This document shows positions 4,176 through 25,173 of a stretch of 38,707 nucleotides of DNA, in pieces; the stretch's first letter is position 1, and every line of letters begins with the position of its first letter. The translations under genes and the position numbers were made by a program. The stretch comes from a virus (Duplodnaviria > Heunggongvirae > Uroviricota > Caudoviricetes). Under the pieces are notes generated by a model. It searched no databases, had not been told where the DNA came from, and saw nothing but the letters and a program-made list of their open reading frames with translations. Location of the stretch: positions 1 through 38,707 of the IMG/VR virus record IMGVR_UViG_2529292997_000008, one strand, 5' to 3'.

Positions 4176-4277
4176 TTATGGATTGATAAGAAGGAACAAA
4201 CCGCCGAACAAAGCGACGTTAACAGCGATTGCAGCAGCGATGGCAAAGGCCAGGGCGAAAACGTGTTTACCGTCCAT
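4176..4277 (-). CDS. small hydrophobic peptide (33 aa, single predicted TM helix)
   Basis: MDGKHVFALAFAIAAAIAVNVALFGGLFLLINP; ATG with GAGAGGA RBS; not in track (<60 aa). Confidence 0.3.
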   Translation of the reverse strand: MDGKHVFALAFAIAAAIAVNVALFGGLFLLINP

Positions 4278-4410
4278 TTTAAAATCCTCTCTAAAACGCT
4301 CTATAACGAGCTAAATAGCTAAAGATATGCAATCGTAGCACCATGCGTGTTTTAGCTCGCTGGTGAGGTTGTTTTGTGGGTAATTTTGGATTTTTGCGAA
4401 TCGTGGTTGG

Positions 4411-5463
4411 TCAAAGAGCGCCTGCGCGTGTGTCGCGTAGCGTTTTTGGTTTAAGCAGGAAATCAAGTGTCGCTGTGAAGCCATTGCCGAAGTAAAAATC
4501 TGAAGCCGTGTTTTTGAATGTTTCGAAGTAGGCGACAAAGCCGTTAATGCTTTTGTCTTTCAGGTAGTCAGTGAACGCATAGATCTTGCGTTCAAGATCC
4601 CGATCCAGTTCGACAGGTGGTAACAGGCCGTCAAACGTGCTGTTAAATGCTTCCACCACGTCGGCAGCGTTTGCAGTGGCTGACAGTTTGCGCCATTGTT
4701 CAGCATCAGTCAGATACCCATCAAATTTAGTTACCCGGCAAATATTGATAGGCTTAGGTGTTCCACCACGGCTACGCCATTGCGTTAAAGCCCACTCAAT
4801 CACTAATGTGATCTCATCCTCCGTATACGCTTTACGTGTTTTTGTTTCTGTCAGTAGTTCGATGAATGGCTTCGCATCACGACATTTGCATCCTGCCTTG
4901 TCGTTGTAGAAGGCCAGGCAACGCAACGCCGCTTCGTTTACGCCATCATGATTGACCATTTTTTGTTCATTTTCGACAATACACGAAGTGTATATATCTT
5001 TTTCTCTTTCTTCTTCTACTTCTAATTCTAATTCATGACCCTTTCCTGACCCGGTCATGACCCTATCATGACCTTTTTGTGTTGGATTGATTAACTTTTC
5101 TAATTTTAATTGCTCCTTAGCTGTGTTTATGGCGGCCCTGTACGCGCTTTTAGAAGTCATTGATTGGTCAAGCCTTTTCAATAACTTTAAACAAGTTATG
5201 TGGCCTTGAGAACATTCAAACAAACCAATTTCGATGAAGTATTTCATCATTTCTTCTATACGTTTTTCAGTCGATCCGACGTTTCGCGCAATGATTCTCG
5301 CGTCATGTCGTAGGTCAAAAGTCAGATTGTGCTGATCTACGTCATAAGTTATTAGTTCGAGGCAATACCAATAAAGCCCGTACCCTTCCAGGCCATAATC
5401 TAACAAAACGTTTTGAAGTTTTTCATCGCGGTTCGCATCGCTGTCATGCTTAAACCACTTCAT
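4411..5463 (-). CDS. replication initiation protein, phage replisome-organizer N-terminal type
   Basis: 350 aa; N-terminus MKWFKHDSDANRDEKLQNVLLDYGLEGYGLYWYCLELI resembles replisome organizer N-domain; acidic linker; GGAGGG RBS; start overlaps upstream stop. Confidence 0.65.
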   Translation of the reverse strand: MKWFKHDSDANRDEKLQNVLLDYGLEGYGLYWYCLELITYDVDQHNLTFDLRHDARIIARNVGSTEKRIEEMMKYFIEIGLFECSQGHITCLKLLKRLDQSMTSKSAYRAAINTAKEQLKLEKLINPTQKGHDRVMTGSGKGHELELEVEEEREKDIYTSCIVENEQKMVNHDGVNEAALRCLAFYNDKAGCKCRDAKPFIELLTETKTRKAYTEDEITLVIEWALTQWRSRGGTPKPINICRVTKFDGYLTDAEQWRKLSATANAADVVEAFNSTFDGLLPPVELDRDLERKIYAFTDYLKDKSINGFVAYFETFKNTASDFYFGNGFTATLDFLLKPKTLRDTRAGAL

Positions 5464-13657: not shown

Positions 13658-14418
13658 GTGGGCTTAGAAATTGGGTGGTGTGGTCGCTGTACGACGGCAG
13701 CGGGTACGCCGTTAAAGATTGGGCCGACGCTGGCTATAAGTGTTATTGTTTCAATTATGACGGCGCTAATCATGGCGATTATGAAGGCGTCAAGATCATT
13801 CATCCTAACATTGAATATGTCAACGTATGGATTGACAGCCATTTCCTGGTAATGTTCTCCCCTGAATTGTCTGTTTATCCAGATCCTGACATTATCCTGG
13901 GCTTTCCTCCGTGCGACGATCTTGCGGTGTCCGGCGCTCGTTGGTTTTCAAGCAAGCGTGAAAAAGATCCTTACTTCCAGCAGAAGGCGGCATACAACGC
14001 AAAACTGGTAGAAACGCTTGCTGACATGTACCACGTCCCGTGGATGGTGGAAAACCCGGTTGGAGCACTGTCAACGTTATGGCGTAAGCCGGATTTCATT
14101 TTTAATCCGTGCGCTTACGGTGGCTACCTGCCGGAAGATGATAAGCATCCAGCTTTCCCGGAATACATCGCCGACCGCGACGCCTACACGAAGAAAACTT
14201 GTATCTGGTGCGGCAACGGATTTAAACAGCCGCTATTTCGGCCTGTACCAATGCCTGATGAGTGGGAAGATAGTAAGCAGCACGCGAAGTTAGGCTGGAA
14301 GTCGAAGCGCACTAAGATGATCCGCTCACTCACGCCGCGAGGATTCGCCCGTGCTGTATTCCTGGCTAATGACCGGGCAATCACGCGGACTACTCTTAAC
14401 CGCGTTTTACCGGATTGA
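13654..14418 (+). CDS. compact C5-cytosine methyltransferase-like protein with PCD variant of motif IV
   Basis: 254 aa; motif I-like LYDGSGYA, motif IV GFPPCDD (PC then D instead of Q), motif VI MVENPVG; ATGA overlap with upstream gene. Confidence 0.55.
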   Translation: MSGLRNWVVWSLYDGSGYAVKDWADAGYKCYCFNYDGANHGDYEGVKIIHPNIEYVNVWIDSHFLVMFSPELSVYPDPDIILGFPPCDDLAVSGARWFSSKREKDPYFQQKAAYNAKLVETLADMYHVPWMVENPVGALSTLWRKPDFIFNPCAYGGYLPEDDKHPAFPEYIADRDAYTKKTCIWCGNGFKQPLFRPVPMPDEWEDSKQHAKLGWKSKRTKMIRSLTPRGFARAVFLANDRAITRTTLNRVLPD

Positions 14419-22000: not shown

Positions 22001-22201
22001 ATGTTCGACAAAATACGGGCGGCGTGCGCTTATGTAACAGGGACCGTAACCGCTTTTTTTGGTGCGATAACCATTAATGACGTTGCCGTCTTTGTGGGTA
22101 TCTTATCAACCATTGGCACATTTGCCGTTAACTATTACTTCAAATCACAGGAGAACAAGCGAGCGCAAGAGGAACACGACGCACGAATGGGGAATAAGTA
22201 A
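22001..22201 (+). CDS. holin, class II / pinholin-like
   Basis: 66 aa; two TM segments, charged C-terminus; immediately precedes SAR endolysin. Confidence 0.75.
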
Positions 22202-22202
22202 C

Positions 22203-22694
22203 ATGATTAGCCAATCGCTAAAGAATAAAATTATTGCTGCGGCGGCTGGTGGGGCTATCGCTATTGCGGCTGTGATGGTTAAACCATTGGAAGGCGTGGA
22301 ATATGATCCTTATCGTGATGTTGTCGGTGTATGGACTGTTTGCCACGGTCACACCGGAAAGGACATCATGCTTGGTAAGACTTACACGCAATTTGAATGC
22401 GATGCTTTGTTGAACAAAGATCTACACAAAACCGCAAAAGCGATTGACCCATATATCAAAGTCGAAATATCAGATTTTACCCGCGCAGCACTTTATTCAT
22501 TCGCCTATAACGTAGGCGCAACCAACTTCAAAACATCAACCTTATTAAAGCTACTTAATGACGGCAAGAAATCGGAAGCGTGCGCACAGCTTAAACGCTG
22601 GGTATACGCTGGCGGTAAGAAGTGGCAAGGCCTGGTTAACCGCCGTGATATTGAATATGCCGTTTGCGAATGGGGTGAAACATGGACAAGGTGA
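22203..22694 (+). CDS. SAR endolysin (phage lysozyme, R21-like)
   Basis: Trimmed to MISQSLKNK; Gly/Ala-rich SAR segment then [34 protein letters not shown], near-identical to phage 21 lysozyme core as recalled. Confidence 0.9.
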
Positions 22695-23152
22695 AGACGT
22701 TAATCATCGCCGTTGTTGTTTGCATTATTGCCGGGCTTACCGCCGTAACGTGTTATTACCAGGGTGAGGCGGCAAGGTTACAGGAAGAAGTCACGGTGAC
22801 GAAAGGCGCACTAAAAACAGCAAGTAACACTATCCAGCAGATGAAGGAGCGAAACGCCGAACTGTCAAAACTTGATAAGAGGTATCACGATGAGATTAAA
22901 GCTATCAGATCTGACATTGCCGATCTTCGCGCTGGCATTGATAGCGGTGCTATCAGGTTGCACGTCAACGCCGAGCCAGTGTACGTGCACGACGCCACCG
23001 GAACCGCCAGCAGCATTAATGGAGCCACCTGTAGACTTACTGCCAGTGCTCAATCAAATTATCTATCCCTCAGAGAACAACTAAAAGAGAAAGACGCGAA
23101 GATCACCGGATTACAGGACTACATCAAAACGCAGTGCATACGCAAAGAATAA
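22682..23152 (+). CDS. Rz: Rz-type i-spanin
   Basis: 156 aa; N-terminal TM helix then coiled-coil periplasmic domain; overlaps endolysin end. Confidence 0.8.
22890..23084 (+). CDS. Rz1: Rz1-type o-spanin lipoprotein embedded in Rz (+1 frame)
   Basis: Lipobox LSGC, proline-rich mature region; wholly inside Rz. Confidence 0.7.
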   Translation: MRLKLSDLTLPIFALALIAVLSGCTSTPSQCTCTTPPEPPAALMEPPVDLLPVLNQIIYPSENN

Positions 23153-23420
23153 CAGCGCGCGGACGTGTCGCCGTTTCCGCCAGCCAGCCATAACCGGGCC
23201 AATCCTTCCCGCGAGCGACAGCGGAAATTCAAAAACACGTAATACCGGATCAACAGTCCCATTAACAGGTCGGGCGCTACCTGGGTAGAAGAAAGCGCCA
23301 TTCACCAATTTTATAAAATTCTGGAAACGGTACTGATGAAGCGCCGTTCTCAGTGTTTTATGTCATTCCTGCCGCTGTATAAACAGGAAGTAAAAGCAAA
23401 CCAGACAGGAGATTATTCTG

Positions 23421-23993
23421 ATGGCTAAGGCTAAAGGCATTAAGTTGCCTCAATTCAAAGTCCCGCTCTTTGAGCATACAACCGTTTTCTTTTGCCCGAC
23501 CCGCGAGATGTTCTATGAATTTTGCGAAAAGGCCGGAATACCAATCGAACCTGATTTCGAACTAGCTGGCGGTCTGACGTTAACCTGTACTGGTGAGACC
23601 GGCGGTAATTTCTACGTGATCGCAGTATTCAACAATGAGACTGGAACGCTGGTCCATGAATGCGCTCACACTACATTCCACGTTTTAAGTGATGTAGGCG
23701 TCGTGGCGACCACTGATCCTACTCATCCTGCGAATGAGACTTACGCTTACATGGTTGGACGTATCTTTGACGCATTCTTCCCAATCCTGGCTGAATCAAA
23801 CGAAGCACAGATCACAGCGATGCAGGCGGCTGAAGTCGTTGAGCAGGCGTTAGAAAAGGCAGAGCAGGCGACTGATGCAGCAGAACAGGCAGAGGAGCCG
23901 AAAGAAGAGAAAAAACCAGCTAAGAAAGGCAAACGTAAGCCGAAAGCAAAAGAGGCGCTTGTACCGCGCGTTATGAGCTTTAAGAGAGGGTAA
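23421..23993 (+). CDS. HExxH-motif protein with Ala/Glu-rich linker and Lys-rich tail
   Basis: 190 aa; LVHECAHTTFH zincin-like motif; C-terminal KKPAKKGKRKPKAK; GGAGA RBS. Confidence 0.55.
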   Translation: MAKAKGIKLPQFKVPLFEHTTVFFCPTREMFYEFCEKAGIPIEPDFELAGGLTLTCTGETGGNFYVIAVFNNETGTLVHECAHTTFHVLSDVGVVATTDPTHPANETYAYMVGRIFDAFFPILAESNEAQITAMQAAEVVEQALEKAEQATDAAEQAEEPKEEKKPAKKGKRKPKAKEALVPRVMSFKRG

Positions 23994-23995
23994 TT

Positions 23996-24064
23996 ATGTT
24001 TACTTTTCTGTTAGGCGTATTTGTTGGCATAGCTGCCGCTGTGATCTTGATATACGGACATTGA
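23996..24064 (+). CDS. micro-ORF 1 of tandem array (22 aa, single TM helix)
   Basis: MFTFLLGVFVGIAAAVILIYGH; GAGGG RBS. Confidence 0.4.
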   Translation: MFTFLLGVFVGIAAAVILIYGH

Positions 24065-24068
24065 TATT

Positions 24069-24173
24069 ATGGATGCTTACATCATCGCCGGATTAATCGG
24101 CGTTTCTGTGTTTCTTGTGGGTTCTATTATAGTTGCGCTGATAAACGTATATATCAAGTATTTGGTGGGGTGA
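24069..24173 (+). CDS. micro-ORF 2 (34 aa, single TM helix)
   Basis: MDAYIIAGLIGVSVFLVGSIIVALINVYIKYLVG; weak GGA RBS. Confidence 0.4.
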   Translation: MDAYIIAGLIGVSVFLVGSIIVALINVYIKYLVG

Positions 24174-24178
24174 AAAAT

Positions 24179-24253
24179 ATGATTGACCCGCTAATTATCC
24201 TTTCTGCCTGCGTCGCTGTATGGCTGGCGATCATGATATTCATTGAAAGCTGA
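24179..24253 (+). CDS. micro-ORF 3 (24 aa, single TM helix)
   Basis: MIDPLIILSACVAVWLAIMIFIES; GGTGGGG RBS. Confidence 0.4.
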   Translation: MIDPLIILSACVAVWLAIMIFIES

Positions 24254-24264
24254 AGGTATCCACA

Positions 24265-24345
24265 ATGAACGCATACGAAATGCTATTGCTGGTGGCTGTT
24301 ATTACAGTTATTGCCGTAGATGTTTATCGGGAGTTTAAAAAATGA
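24265..24345 (+). CDS. micro-ORF 4 (26 aa, single TM helix)
   Basis: MNAYEMLLLVAVITVIAVDVYREFKK; GAAGG RBS. Confidence 0.4.
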   Translation: MNAYEMLLLVAVITVIAVDVYREFKK

Positions 24346-24410
24346 AATGGCTTGATTTCTTTTTCCTGATCGTTGCGATTGTTCTCACTATGACAGCGCT
24401 TGCTCAATAG
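24342..24410 (+). CDS. micro-ORF 5 (22 aa, single TM helix)
   Basis: MKWLDFFFLIVAIVLTMTALAQ; GGGAG RBS; ATGA overlap. Confidence 0.4.
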   Translation: MKWLDFFFLIVAIVLTMTALAQ

Positions 24411-24418
24411 GTGAAAGC

Positions 24419-24493
24419 ATGAACGCTATTGATATTATGTTGATCGTGTGTACCGTTGCATTAGTTATTATTGGGGTGATTATCAATGTCTGA
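24419..24493 (+). CDS. micro-ORF 6 (24 aa, single TM helix)
   Basis: MNAIDIMLIVCTVALVIIGVIINV; AGGTGA RBS. Confidence 0.4.
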   Translation: MNAIDIMLIVCTVALVIIGVIINV

Positions 24494-24554
24494 TGGTGAT
24501 TTCTTAATCATGGCTATATGCACGCTGTTAACTGTTATTGTTTTCTTCGCGTAA
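24486..24554 (+). CDS. micro-ORF 7 (22 aa, single TM helix)
   Basis: MSDGDFLIMAICTLLTVIVFFA; GGGGTGA RBS; overlaps ORF 6 stop. Confidence 0.4.
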   Translation: MSDGDFLIMAICTLLTVIVFFA

Positions 24555-24563
24555 AGGTAAACA

Positions 24564-24647
24564 ATGAAAGAATTATTCGATTGGTTGGAAGTATTAACAT
24601 ACTGTGCAAGTTTTGTTGCTTGCGTATATATCATCAATAAATATTGA
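24564..24647 (+). CDS. micro-ORF 8 (27 aa, single TM helix)
   Basis: MKELFDWLEVLTYCASFVACVYIINKY; AAGG RBS. Confidence 0.4.
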   Translation: MKELFDWLEVLTYCASFVACVYIINKY

Positions 24648-24657
24648 GAGGTGAATT

Positions 24658-25173
24658 ATGGCCCGCACTAAAAAGGCAAAAGCTGACGACAAAAAGCCAG
24701 CCGCAAAAAGGGTGGGCCGTCCGCATGGTTATACCGAAGAAAAGGCGTTAGAAATCTGTGAACTGGTGGCGGACGGTCAGAGCGTTAACAAAATTTCGAA
24801 GATGCCTGGTATGCCTACCCGTTCAACAATCCTGAAATGGTTTAGAGACGTGCCGGAATTCTCGGACATGTACATGCGCGCGAAGGAAATCGGCTTCGAG
24901 GTATTAGCTGATGAGATCCTCGATATAGCTGATGATGCTAAGAACGTTGATAAAGACCAACTACGCCGCCACCAATTAATGATTGAAACGCGTAAATGGT
25001 TATTGGCTAAGCTACAACCGCGCAAATACGGCGAACGCGTCACACAGGAGATCGTCGGTAACAAGGAAGAAGCACCCGTCCAGGTAGAAGTAAATCAGAC
25101 TACTGTCCTTGAGATAATCGATAACCTGAATAAGGAGTACAATACTCATGGAGACTGCGACGACAAAGATTGA
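24658..25173 (+). CDS. terS: terminase small subunit (Sf6/P22-like HTH type)
   Basis: 171 aa; pattern GRP..Y....IC..V..G.S..KI.KMPGMP..ST...W.......Y..A.E......EI..IAD.A......TRKW.LA...PRKYG matches Sf6-type small terminase as recalled; GAGGTGA RBS. Confidence 0.8.
   Translation: MARTKKAKADDKKPAAKRVGRPHGYTEEKALEICELVADGQSVNKISKMPGMPTRSTILKWFRDVPEFSDMYMRAKEIGFEVLADEILDIADDAKNVDKDQLRRHQLMIETRKWLLAKLQPRKYGERVTQEIVGNKEEAPVQVEVNQTTVLEIIDNLNKEYNTHGDCDDKD

Follow-up and report, generated by a model that had tools for sequence, protein, structure and literature searches.

What might a small HExxH protein do for a temperate coliphage when its gene lies between the lysis genes and the terminase genes? 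The question is raised by ORF190, a 190-aa open reading frame (ORF) with an ATG start that occupies positions 23421-23993 of the + strand, stop codon included, in a stretch of viral DNA of 38,707 nucleotides (IMG/VR record IMGVR_UViG_2529292997_000008; the whole stretch is referred to here as the window). The region 23100-24250 has a DNA identity of 84-88% to the temperate coliphages mEp044, mEp021, mEp515, mEp554, mEp010, mEp013 and MagusPhagus, and judged from its sequence the window is an mEp021-like (mEpimmI) temperate coliphage, the mEpimmI group being Nus-dependent, non-lambdoid phages (PMC11893012). The orthologue of ORF190 is mEp021_49 (gp49), which is labelled 'hypothetical protein' and is not discussed in the paper on the mEpimmI phages (PMC11893012). 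It would seem from the sequence and a structural model that ORF190 is an accessory late-region protein resembling a Zn metallopeptidase, whose tail would serve as a tether for action on DNA-associated proteins, a reading that as a whole we favour modestly; that the core alone is a Zn metallopeptidase, with H79, H83 and E106 as predicted ligands and E80 as predicted general base, is put forward with good confidence.

The original prediction for this locus, made from the letters alone, was of a metalloprotease- or zincin-like protein with the motif LVHECAHTTFH, and the reading frame, its length and the position of the motif (residues 77-87) have all been reproduced. Within this motif the segment HECAH (residues 79-83; 23655-23669, + strand) lies on helix 74-91, where H79, E80 and H83 are the predicted first two zinc ligands and general base, and it is invariant in three alignments of relatives (A4, A6 and A7), whereas H87 shows no conservation in the wider family. 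A second conserved segment, NETYAY (N105-Y110; 23733-23750, + strand), contributes Y110 and, where helix 104-130 begins, E106 as the predicted third zinc ligand; both are invariant in the same three alignments. In the 60-sequence alignment A4, where the mean column identity is 21%, the invariant columns are G51, H79, E80, H83, E106 and Y110, and the invariant residues are retained in lytic-phage homologues at 21-29% identity; because H79, E80, H83, E106 and Y110 persist at such a level of divergence, among relatives of no more than 20-40% identity, the HExxH motif of ORF190 exceeds what would be expected by chance. The family signature is HExxH followed 19-23 residues on by (N)ExxxY and, since this is invariant across the relatives, it is by its sequence a gluzincin-type signature. 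The spacing from H83 to E106 is 23 residues in ORF190 and about 19-20 in most relatives, and that from H205 to E229 of ArdC is 24 residues (PMC7213743); furthermore E106-T-Y-A109 matches the pattern (E,H)xx(A,F,T,S,G) described for the glutamate helix of gluzincins (PMC7213743).

These residues lie in an N-terminal globular domain (residues 1-131; 23421-23813, + strand) that belongs to PHROG family 1365, the match to phrog_1365 (function unknown) having an E value of 3.2e-31 and running from residues 1 to 132 of ORF190 against profile positions 3-125 of 127. An AlphaFold2 model of residues 1-131, built with 60 diverse sequences, has a pLDDT of 93.7 and a pTM of 0.88, and its elements as assigned by DSSP are b11-13, b21-25, a28-38, a44-48, b51-57, b63-69, a74-91, which carries HExxH, and a104-130, which carries E106 and Y110. 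The zincin core of mobile-element metallopeptidases has been described as a sheet, a backing helix, an HExxH helix and a Glu-bearing helix (PMC5512222), and the order of sheet and backing helix, HExxH helix and Glu helix is shared by ArdC, Spartan and IrrE (PMC7213743). The topology of the model agrees with this core, with HExxH sitting on a helix and the Glu on the next one, and so far as secondary structure and topology can show, the HExxH of ORF190 does have the metalloprotease-like setting that was anticipated for it. A Foldseek search of predicted viral structures (BFVD) gave 27 matches at E<1e-3, mostly to uncharacterised proteins from very diverse phages, including a 'SprT-like family protein' (E 8.6e-5, TM 0.68), a 'Metalloprotease' and a 'SprT-like' entry. 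The outcome of fold searching was mixed: among the top fold matches in the PDB there was no solved zincin or solved protease. When ~125 relatives were scanned against Pfam one at a time, SprT-like (PF10263) appeared below threshold in 13 of them (best E 0.0091) and is the nearest Pfam family by such hits, and other stray matches include the zincin peptidase families Astacin, Reprolysin_2, M50B, M76, M78, DA1 and BSP. Because the invariant HExxH and Glu, the confident model with zincin topology, the viral fold matches and the sub-threshold zincin hits in Pfam all point the same way, residues 1-131 are, as modelled, a zincin-like domain; metal binding and proteolysis are what we infer for it.

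The relatives of ORF190 fall into a close and a distant set. A word-indexed protein search found 121 close homologues with 59-94% identity, nearly all of them from E. coli prophages and mostly 180 aa long. An exhaustive hidden Markov model (HMM) search, in which a profile of residues 1-131 was run against 1.84 billion cluster representatives, returned 234 of them at E<=1e-3, with 28 reaching E<=1e-10, and the majority have 105-140 aa; two giant repetitive proteins among the 234 (P0148 and P0173) are spurious, as they match only an 'LPAFKIPLFG'-type repeat. A second profile search of proteins mostly recovered the same close E. coli clusters. The locus is found in 35 of 5426 complete E. coli genomes, a close-alignment search with it returned only mEpimmI-type contigs, and the literature on hkcC and on SprT-like phage anti-defence proteins yielded nothing on the PHROG 1365 family.

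The position of the gene was compared across this range. The P22-like phages L, ST64T, epsilon34 and g341c, as well as a prophage contig, have the homologue, Orf129, in the interval from the spanin gene to terS. An unrelated siphovirus contig has it directly 5' of the presumed terS/terL, and in N4-like Gamaleyaviruses it is ~1.5 kb from terS and near the genome end. Homologues in lytic phages keep all the invariant residues: in a Pseudomonas phage of phiKMV-like type the gene is flanked by those for DNA ligase and RNA polymerase, and in an Enterobacter phage of Jersey-like type by those for DNA polymerase I and helicase. Temperate phages carry the gene in the late region, between the lysis genes and terS, and lytic phages carry it among genes of DNA metabolism.

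Beyond its N-terminal domain ORF190 has an extension in two parts, and in both of them the original prediction was borne out, having named an Ala/Glu/Gln-rich helical linker followed by a strongly basic C-terminus. The linker (residues 125-160; 23793-23900, + strand) is acidic, with 67% Ala, Glu and Gln and a pI of 4.05, and is modelled at low confidence as part of a continuous helix from 103 to 157; the full-length AlphaFold2 model from which a long helix to residue 157 and a disordered tail emerge was built from close homologues alone and is poor (pLDDT 51). Indels of 10-14 aa among close relatives give rise to forms of 180, 190 and 194 aa, and because the helix varies in length by this much between close relatives, its sequence fits a spacer and not a folded domain. 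The tail (residues 161-190; 23901-23990, + strand) is predicted to be disordered and ends in the conserved peptide ALVPRVMSFKRG; residues 158-190 have 13 Lys/Arg in 33 residues, a pI of 10.35 and a pLDDT of <50. Its residues 165-178 read KKPAKKGKRKPKAK, and K168, K171-K173, K175, K177, P182 and V184 are invariant in close relatives. The terminal peptide is found again in the homologue P0121 (55% identical), and a tblastn search with the tail peptide alone found only the same gene in close relatives and no other phage protein; a tail that acts as a shared targeting module was ruled out on account of this restriction to one gene. On its composition alone the tail could plausibly bind DNA, and that it tethers the protein to DNA has, in our estimate, something close to an even chance. 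A tail-like composition is also seen at the N-terminus of the small terminase subunit TerS (24658-24750), which is rich in Lys, Pro and Ala (MARTKKAKADDKKPAAKRVGRP) much as the tail of ORF190 is (EEKKPAKKGKRKPKAK), and this likeness may be a coincidence or a common mode of DNA contact.

Taken together these features suggest how ORF190 might work as an accessory protein encoded in the late region of an mEpimmI-type temperate coliphage. The first ~130 residues would form a minimal soluble metallopeptidase domain of zincin (gluzincin-like) type, in which Zn2+ would be held by H79 and H83 from the active-site helix and by E106 from the next helix, E80 would activate a water molecule and Y110 would help to stabilise the transition state, and a substrate could dock as an extra strand on the hairpin b51-57/b63-69. 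In the mEpimmI lineage the predicted catalytic domain is lengthened by the variable acidic helix and the Lys-rich disordered tail, and the most likely role of the tail is to hold the enzyme on nucleic acid or some other polyanion. If it is tethered in this way, the enzyme may act on DNA-associated proteins as do the DNA-scaffolded zincins Spartan/Wss1 and ArdC; DNA-associated host or defence proteins are possible substrates, although we would not call them probable ones. An analogy may be drawn for the family as a whole, as a phage counterpart of the DNA-scaffolded proteases in which a minimal gluzincin clears or cleaves DNA-bound proteins, candidates being host nucleoid proteins, defence nucleases and roadblocks on concatemers. 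This is a speculative proposal that we regard as rather improbable; were it right, both the adjacency to terS in temperate phages and the location in replication modules in lytic phages would be explained, and the mEpimmI phages would have gained a DNA tether of their own in the acidic spacer and Lys-rich tail.

Several observations weigh against the reading of ORF190 as a tethered metallopeptidase. The genomic contexts of the family are heterogeneous. The acidic helix and basic tail are a feature of the mEpimmI clade, with differing forms in a few others (P0121, P0163 and P0171), and most relatives (~120 aa) end soon after the Glu helix without a tail; because of this, tethering to DNA cannot, on the sequences available, be a mechanism of the whole family. 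No model in Pfam or NCBIfam matches ORF190 above threshold, NCBIfam giving motif-only noise for the relatives. Searches of the PDB by sequence (phmmer) and by profile found nothing significant. Finally the profile-profile matches made with hhalign are restricted to the region of the active-site helix. Alignment A4 against a SprT profile (A8; 7 sequences, E. coli YggI and phage SprT proteins) gave a probability of 70% over 15 columns around HExxH, and 5.7% against the single E. coli SprT, and against a profile of the ArdC metalloprotease domain (A9; 25 sequences, each with PF18818) it gave 73% over 31 columns, which cover the preceding strand and the HExxH helix and leave the Glu helix unaligned.

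The more specific identities that had been suggested, SprT or ImmA/IrrE, were not upheld. Membership of SprT is not supported, in view of the missed PF10263 threshold, a third ligand that is Glu and not His, the 15 columns of hhalign alignment and the lack of a Cys-rich C-terminus. Membership of ImmA/IrrE is not supported either, as only one of the ~125 relatives has an M78 match and no helix-turn-helix (HTH) repressor gene is adjacent, the neighbours being Rz and TerS. Membership of the ArdC/PolyVal group is not demonstrable, as hmmscan found no match to PF18818 in ORF190 or in any of the ~125 relatives, the hhalign match is confined to 31 columns, and ORF190 has a single globular domain with a low-complexity extension. 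PADLOC defence models gave no match to ORF190 or to five relatives. The domain is best described as a family of its own inside the zincin superfamily, about equidistant from the SprT-like and PolyVal/ArdC-type proteins, and going by sequence and model ORF190 appears to be a new member of an uncharacterised zincin family that many sequenced phages and prophages already carry, labelled 'hypothetical protein'.

The order of genes around ORF190 has been confirmed by PHROG matches. ORF190 is preceded by the genes for a holin (22001-22201), an endolysin that ends at 22694 and an Rz spanin with Rz1 embedded in it (22682-23152), and by a gap of 268 bp between the Rz stop and its own start (23153-23420). 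It is followed by an array of eight mini-ORFs (23996-24647, + strand) and then by TerS (24658-25173), the large terminase subunit TerL, the portal, a MuF-like head morphogenesis protein and the major capsid protein. The MuF-like protein of the window has 317 aa, and its counterpart in the relative L058 (9491-10534) has 635 aa and includes an intein (PF14890 Intein_splicing).

This setting beside packaging and head genes, the MuF-like gene among them, could be taken to mean that ORF190 is an effector delivered with the virion, a solo polyvalent-type zincin co-packaged through its basic tail and ejected, which processes phage proteins or cleaves a host or defence protein early in infection. Solo polyvalent-protein domains encoded near structural genes have indeed been argued to act in early invasion (PMC5512222), one 59%-identical homologue was named 'PolyVal Metallopeptidase superfamily domain' by its source and the PF18818 profile was matched, as above, at 73% by hhalign. 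In addition P22 and HK620 carry a paralogue (hkcC) between the ejection-protein gene 16 and the tailspike gene. In P22 (NC_002371.2) this counterpart of HK620 hkcC is an intact ORF of 125 aa at 13849-14226 (+ strand; L050 2989-3366), between sieA and orf59a, which has a GTG start (121 aa if counted from the first ATG), reads HECAH...NETYCY and has no CDS in the RefSeq record. Set against an effector in the virion is a study of mEp021 virions in which mass spectrometry of excised bands identified 16 proteins (PMC11893012); only two of these are encoded outside the structural cluster, and because both map 5' of the lysis genes gp49 was not detected among them, in an analysis of 15-16 gel bands that a low-abundance protein could escape. 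The failure of PF18818 to match by hmmscan, the lack of a tail in most relatives and the position within replication modules in lytic phages also count against virion delivery, and we consider it unlikely.

Somewhat less likely again is a role that is not proteolytic, with ORF190 serving as an accessory factor of packaging or lysis or supporting other metal-dependent chemistry on an HExxH zincin-like scaffold. The slot immediately 5' of terS recurs in phages with three types of TerS, five relatives weakly match a model of HExxH peptide hydroxylases and, as noted, no solved protease is among the top fold hits, all of which would be in keeping with such a role. However, the hydroxylase matches cover the motif only, and the gluzincin tetrad (H, E, H and E) is invariant together with the Tyr at 20-30% identity. 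Furthermore P22 has only the copy in its immI region, and because it has none at the position between lysis genes and terS, a copy adjacent to terS would be dispensable for packaging.

The gap upstream raises the prospect that ORF190 is a moron, a gene that the prophage would transcribe independently from a promoter, or control by a regulatory RNA, within the gap itself, given that a conserved non-coding stretch of 268 bp with a hairpin lies 5' of the gene at a mosaic junction with insertions. The original prediction was that this gap holds no convincing ORF and may hold a promoter or small RNA, and the first half of this has proved sound. The sole ORF of >=30 aa on the + strand is one of 30 aa (23336-23428), which lacks its start codon in mEp044 and differs in frame and stop in mEp021, and the - strand has ORFs of 60-65 aa that 1-nt indels interrupt in the relatives. 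An alignment was made of 38 distinct variants of the gap. Translation in six frames revealed no conserved reading frame, and a decayed or hidden gene was rejected since indels disrupt every frame. The first ~150 nt past the Rz stop are >90% conserved yet contain 1-nt indels, a block of 58-60 nt is carried by some variants and missing from others, and the final ~70 nt, the 3' leader, occur in two unrelated versions; matches to the block are restricted to mEpimmI phages.

The second half of the prediction fared less well. A promoter scan of the gap found none on the + strand, and a TATAAA at ~23312 was discounted on direct reading, there being no acceptable -35 element upstream of it. Rfam gave no match in the gap and the z-scores of its predicted RNA fold are not significant (-1.41 on the + strand and -0.58 on the - strand), on which ground a structured RNA was rejected; a nut site was rejected as well, since nutL, nutR1 and nutR2 of mEp021 are located elsewhere. 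There is an imperfect extended hairpin at 23313-23361 (+ strand), with the inner stem AACGG/CCGTT and then GTGTTTTAT, which is the equivalent of 'TERM_6' (L001 4280-4312), predicted as a terminator in the record of mEp021, and is present in the minimum-free-energy structure from RNAfold; the evidence for it is weak because a terminator scan of the window does not call it. The one Rfam hit in 22500-25000 is outside the gap, a ribosomal S15 leader at 24605-24686 (+ strand) that spans the last mini-ORF and the start of terS, and at 22 bits against a gathering threshold of 39.5 (E 0.032) it is probably due to chance. The gap has also been a site of insertion: an HNH-AP2 homing endonuclease gene is inserted there in L026 (~4180-5000), an HNH gene is annotated there in mEp013, and in L058 a similar HNH/AP2 gene separates the endolysin gene from that for Rz within the lysis cassette. 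Judging from these comparisons the gap is a mosaic junction and insertion hot spot, and our preferred reading is of conserved non-coding DNA that forms a junction and the leader of the late transcript, not of a locus for a promoter or small RNA. A Shine-Dalgarno sequence, AGGAG, can be read directly at 23407-23411 (+ strand), 9 nt 5' of the ATG of ORF190, and AGGAG or GAGGA is kept in the relatives. The GC and GC3 of ORF190 are those of the neighbouring genes and the gene is present in all seven (7/7) of the sequenced mEpimmI-type phage records matched and, within the group, in 46 IMG/VR contigs, which along with the missing sigma-70-like promoter, RNA family and significant fold makes a moron a quite improbable explanation.

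The array of mini-ORFs next door is a more unusual feature than ORF190 itself. Eight mini-ORFs of 22-34 aa lie head to tail and fill the space between ORF190 and terS, spanning 627 of 664 nt, every one with a separate Shine-Dalgarno sequence; in the encoded peptides a short polar N-terminus leads into one hydrophobic stretch of ~18-20 residues, as for a single helix. Dinucleotide shuffles produced 0.71 +/- 0.79 such ORFs with a maximum of 4 in 500, and the - strand has none. Variable sites are distributed 51/42/101 over the three codon positions, which points to coding constraint. Related phages have between 3 and 12 copies, gained and lost in a cassette-like way, and the mini-ORFs have no PHROG matches and are not annotated in mEp021 and only in part in mEp044. 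In some E. coli prophages (P0048 and P0049) the stop codon of the zincin gene has been lost and it is fused in frame to the first mini-ORF, giving proteins of 209-211 aa with a C-terminal segment that resembles a transmembrane helix.

It might be supposed from these fusions, and from the direct adjacency and shared orientation of ORF190 and the array, that ORF190 is a processing peptidase for the eight tiny hydrophobic peptides and forms a peptide-maturation pair with them; but the annotated or called neighbours of the P22-like, N4-like, phiKMV-like and Jersey-like relatives show no run of tiny ORFs, the mini-ORFs have no leader or cleavage-site signature and the zincin is predicted to be cytosolic, and the idea is very unlikely to be right. 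Control of induction by an ImmA/IrrE-type regulatory protease, through cleavage of a repressor, can similarly be given very little credence, for although the layout of HExxH and Glu is like that of M78 proteases and there is one weak Peptidase_M78 match (E 0.099), that match is in one of ~125 members, the late-region neighbours are lysis and packaging genes with no HTH repressor gene adjacent, and the lytic phages have no repressor to cleave.

Should ORF190 prove to be active, it would define a family of compact proteases (~105-130 aa) whose members occur in temperate as well as lytic phages, the model phages P22, L and HK620 among them, in a PHROG family that is widespread though it has no Pfam or NCBIfam model. 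The identity of the substrate could then reveal a new interaction between phage and host, be it anti-defence, remodelling of the nucleoid or clearance of DNA before packaging. As it stands, the gain is that an ordinary 'hypothetical protein' is given a sharper and testable annotation.

How ORF190 compares with known systems depends on the distance at which one looks. The members of PHROG 1365, such as Orf129 of L, ST64T and epsilon34 and HkcC of HK620, are true homologues, all of them annotated 'hypothetical'. Orf129 has 47% identity to ORF190 over 125 aa and occupies the same slot between the spanin gene and terS; HkcC and the P22 ORF are 33-39% identical to ORF190 with the same invariant residues, but are located in the immI region and not beside terS. 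All of these are 104-139 aa long and, unlike ORF190, have neither the acidic helix nor the basic tail. At the level of the scaffold there are the minigluzincins proabylysin and projannalysin, archaeal proteins related to M48/M56, which are soluble minimal gluzincin scaffolds of ~100 residues with a sheet, a backing helix, an active-site helix and a glutamate helix; the searches run on ORF190 gave no sequence or fold match to them.

ImmA/IrrE proteins are likewise gluzincins of phages and mobile elements with HExxH and Glu, but the ORF190 family is encoded in the late region or in replication modules and has no partner repressor gene. The SprT-like proteins (PF10263; E. coli SprT/YggI, Spartan and Wss1) share a small zincin domain with ORF190 and are its nearest annotated neighbours in the viral fold library, and the joining of a protease to a basic DNA-binding region, as in Spartan, is a likeness in concept (PMC5127644). 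They differ in having an invariant His 13 residues past HExxH (H95 in A8; also PMC7213743), where nothing is conserved in the ORF190 family, and bacterial SprT has a C-terminal zinc ribbon whereas ORF190 has no zinc ribbon or ZBD. The C-terminal metalloprotease domain of ArdC ('MPTase-PolyVal', PF18818) is a mobile-element gluzincin in which HExxH is followed by a Glu in the next helix, with a conserved Tyr near the site (PMC7213743), a layout that ORF190 resembles, the Glu lying 23-24 residues on in the two, but ORF190 is much smaller, lacks the ArdC-N domain and is not a multidomain 'polyvalent' protein. ArdC also carries a nucleic-acid-binding module in the same polypeptide (PMC7213743), and the counterpart of that module in ORF190 would be the tail, for which we infer DNA binding from its composition.

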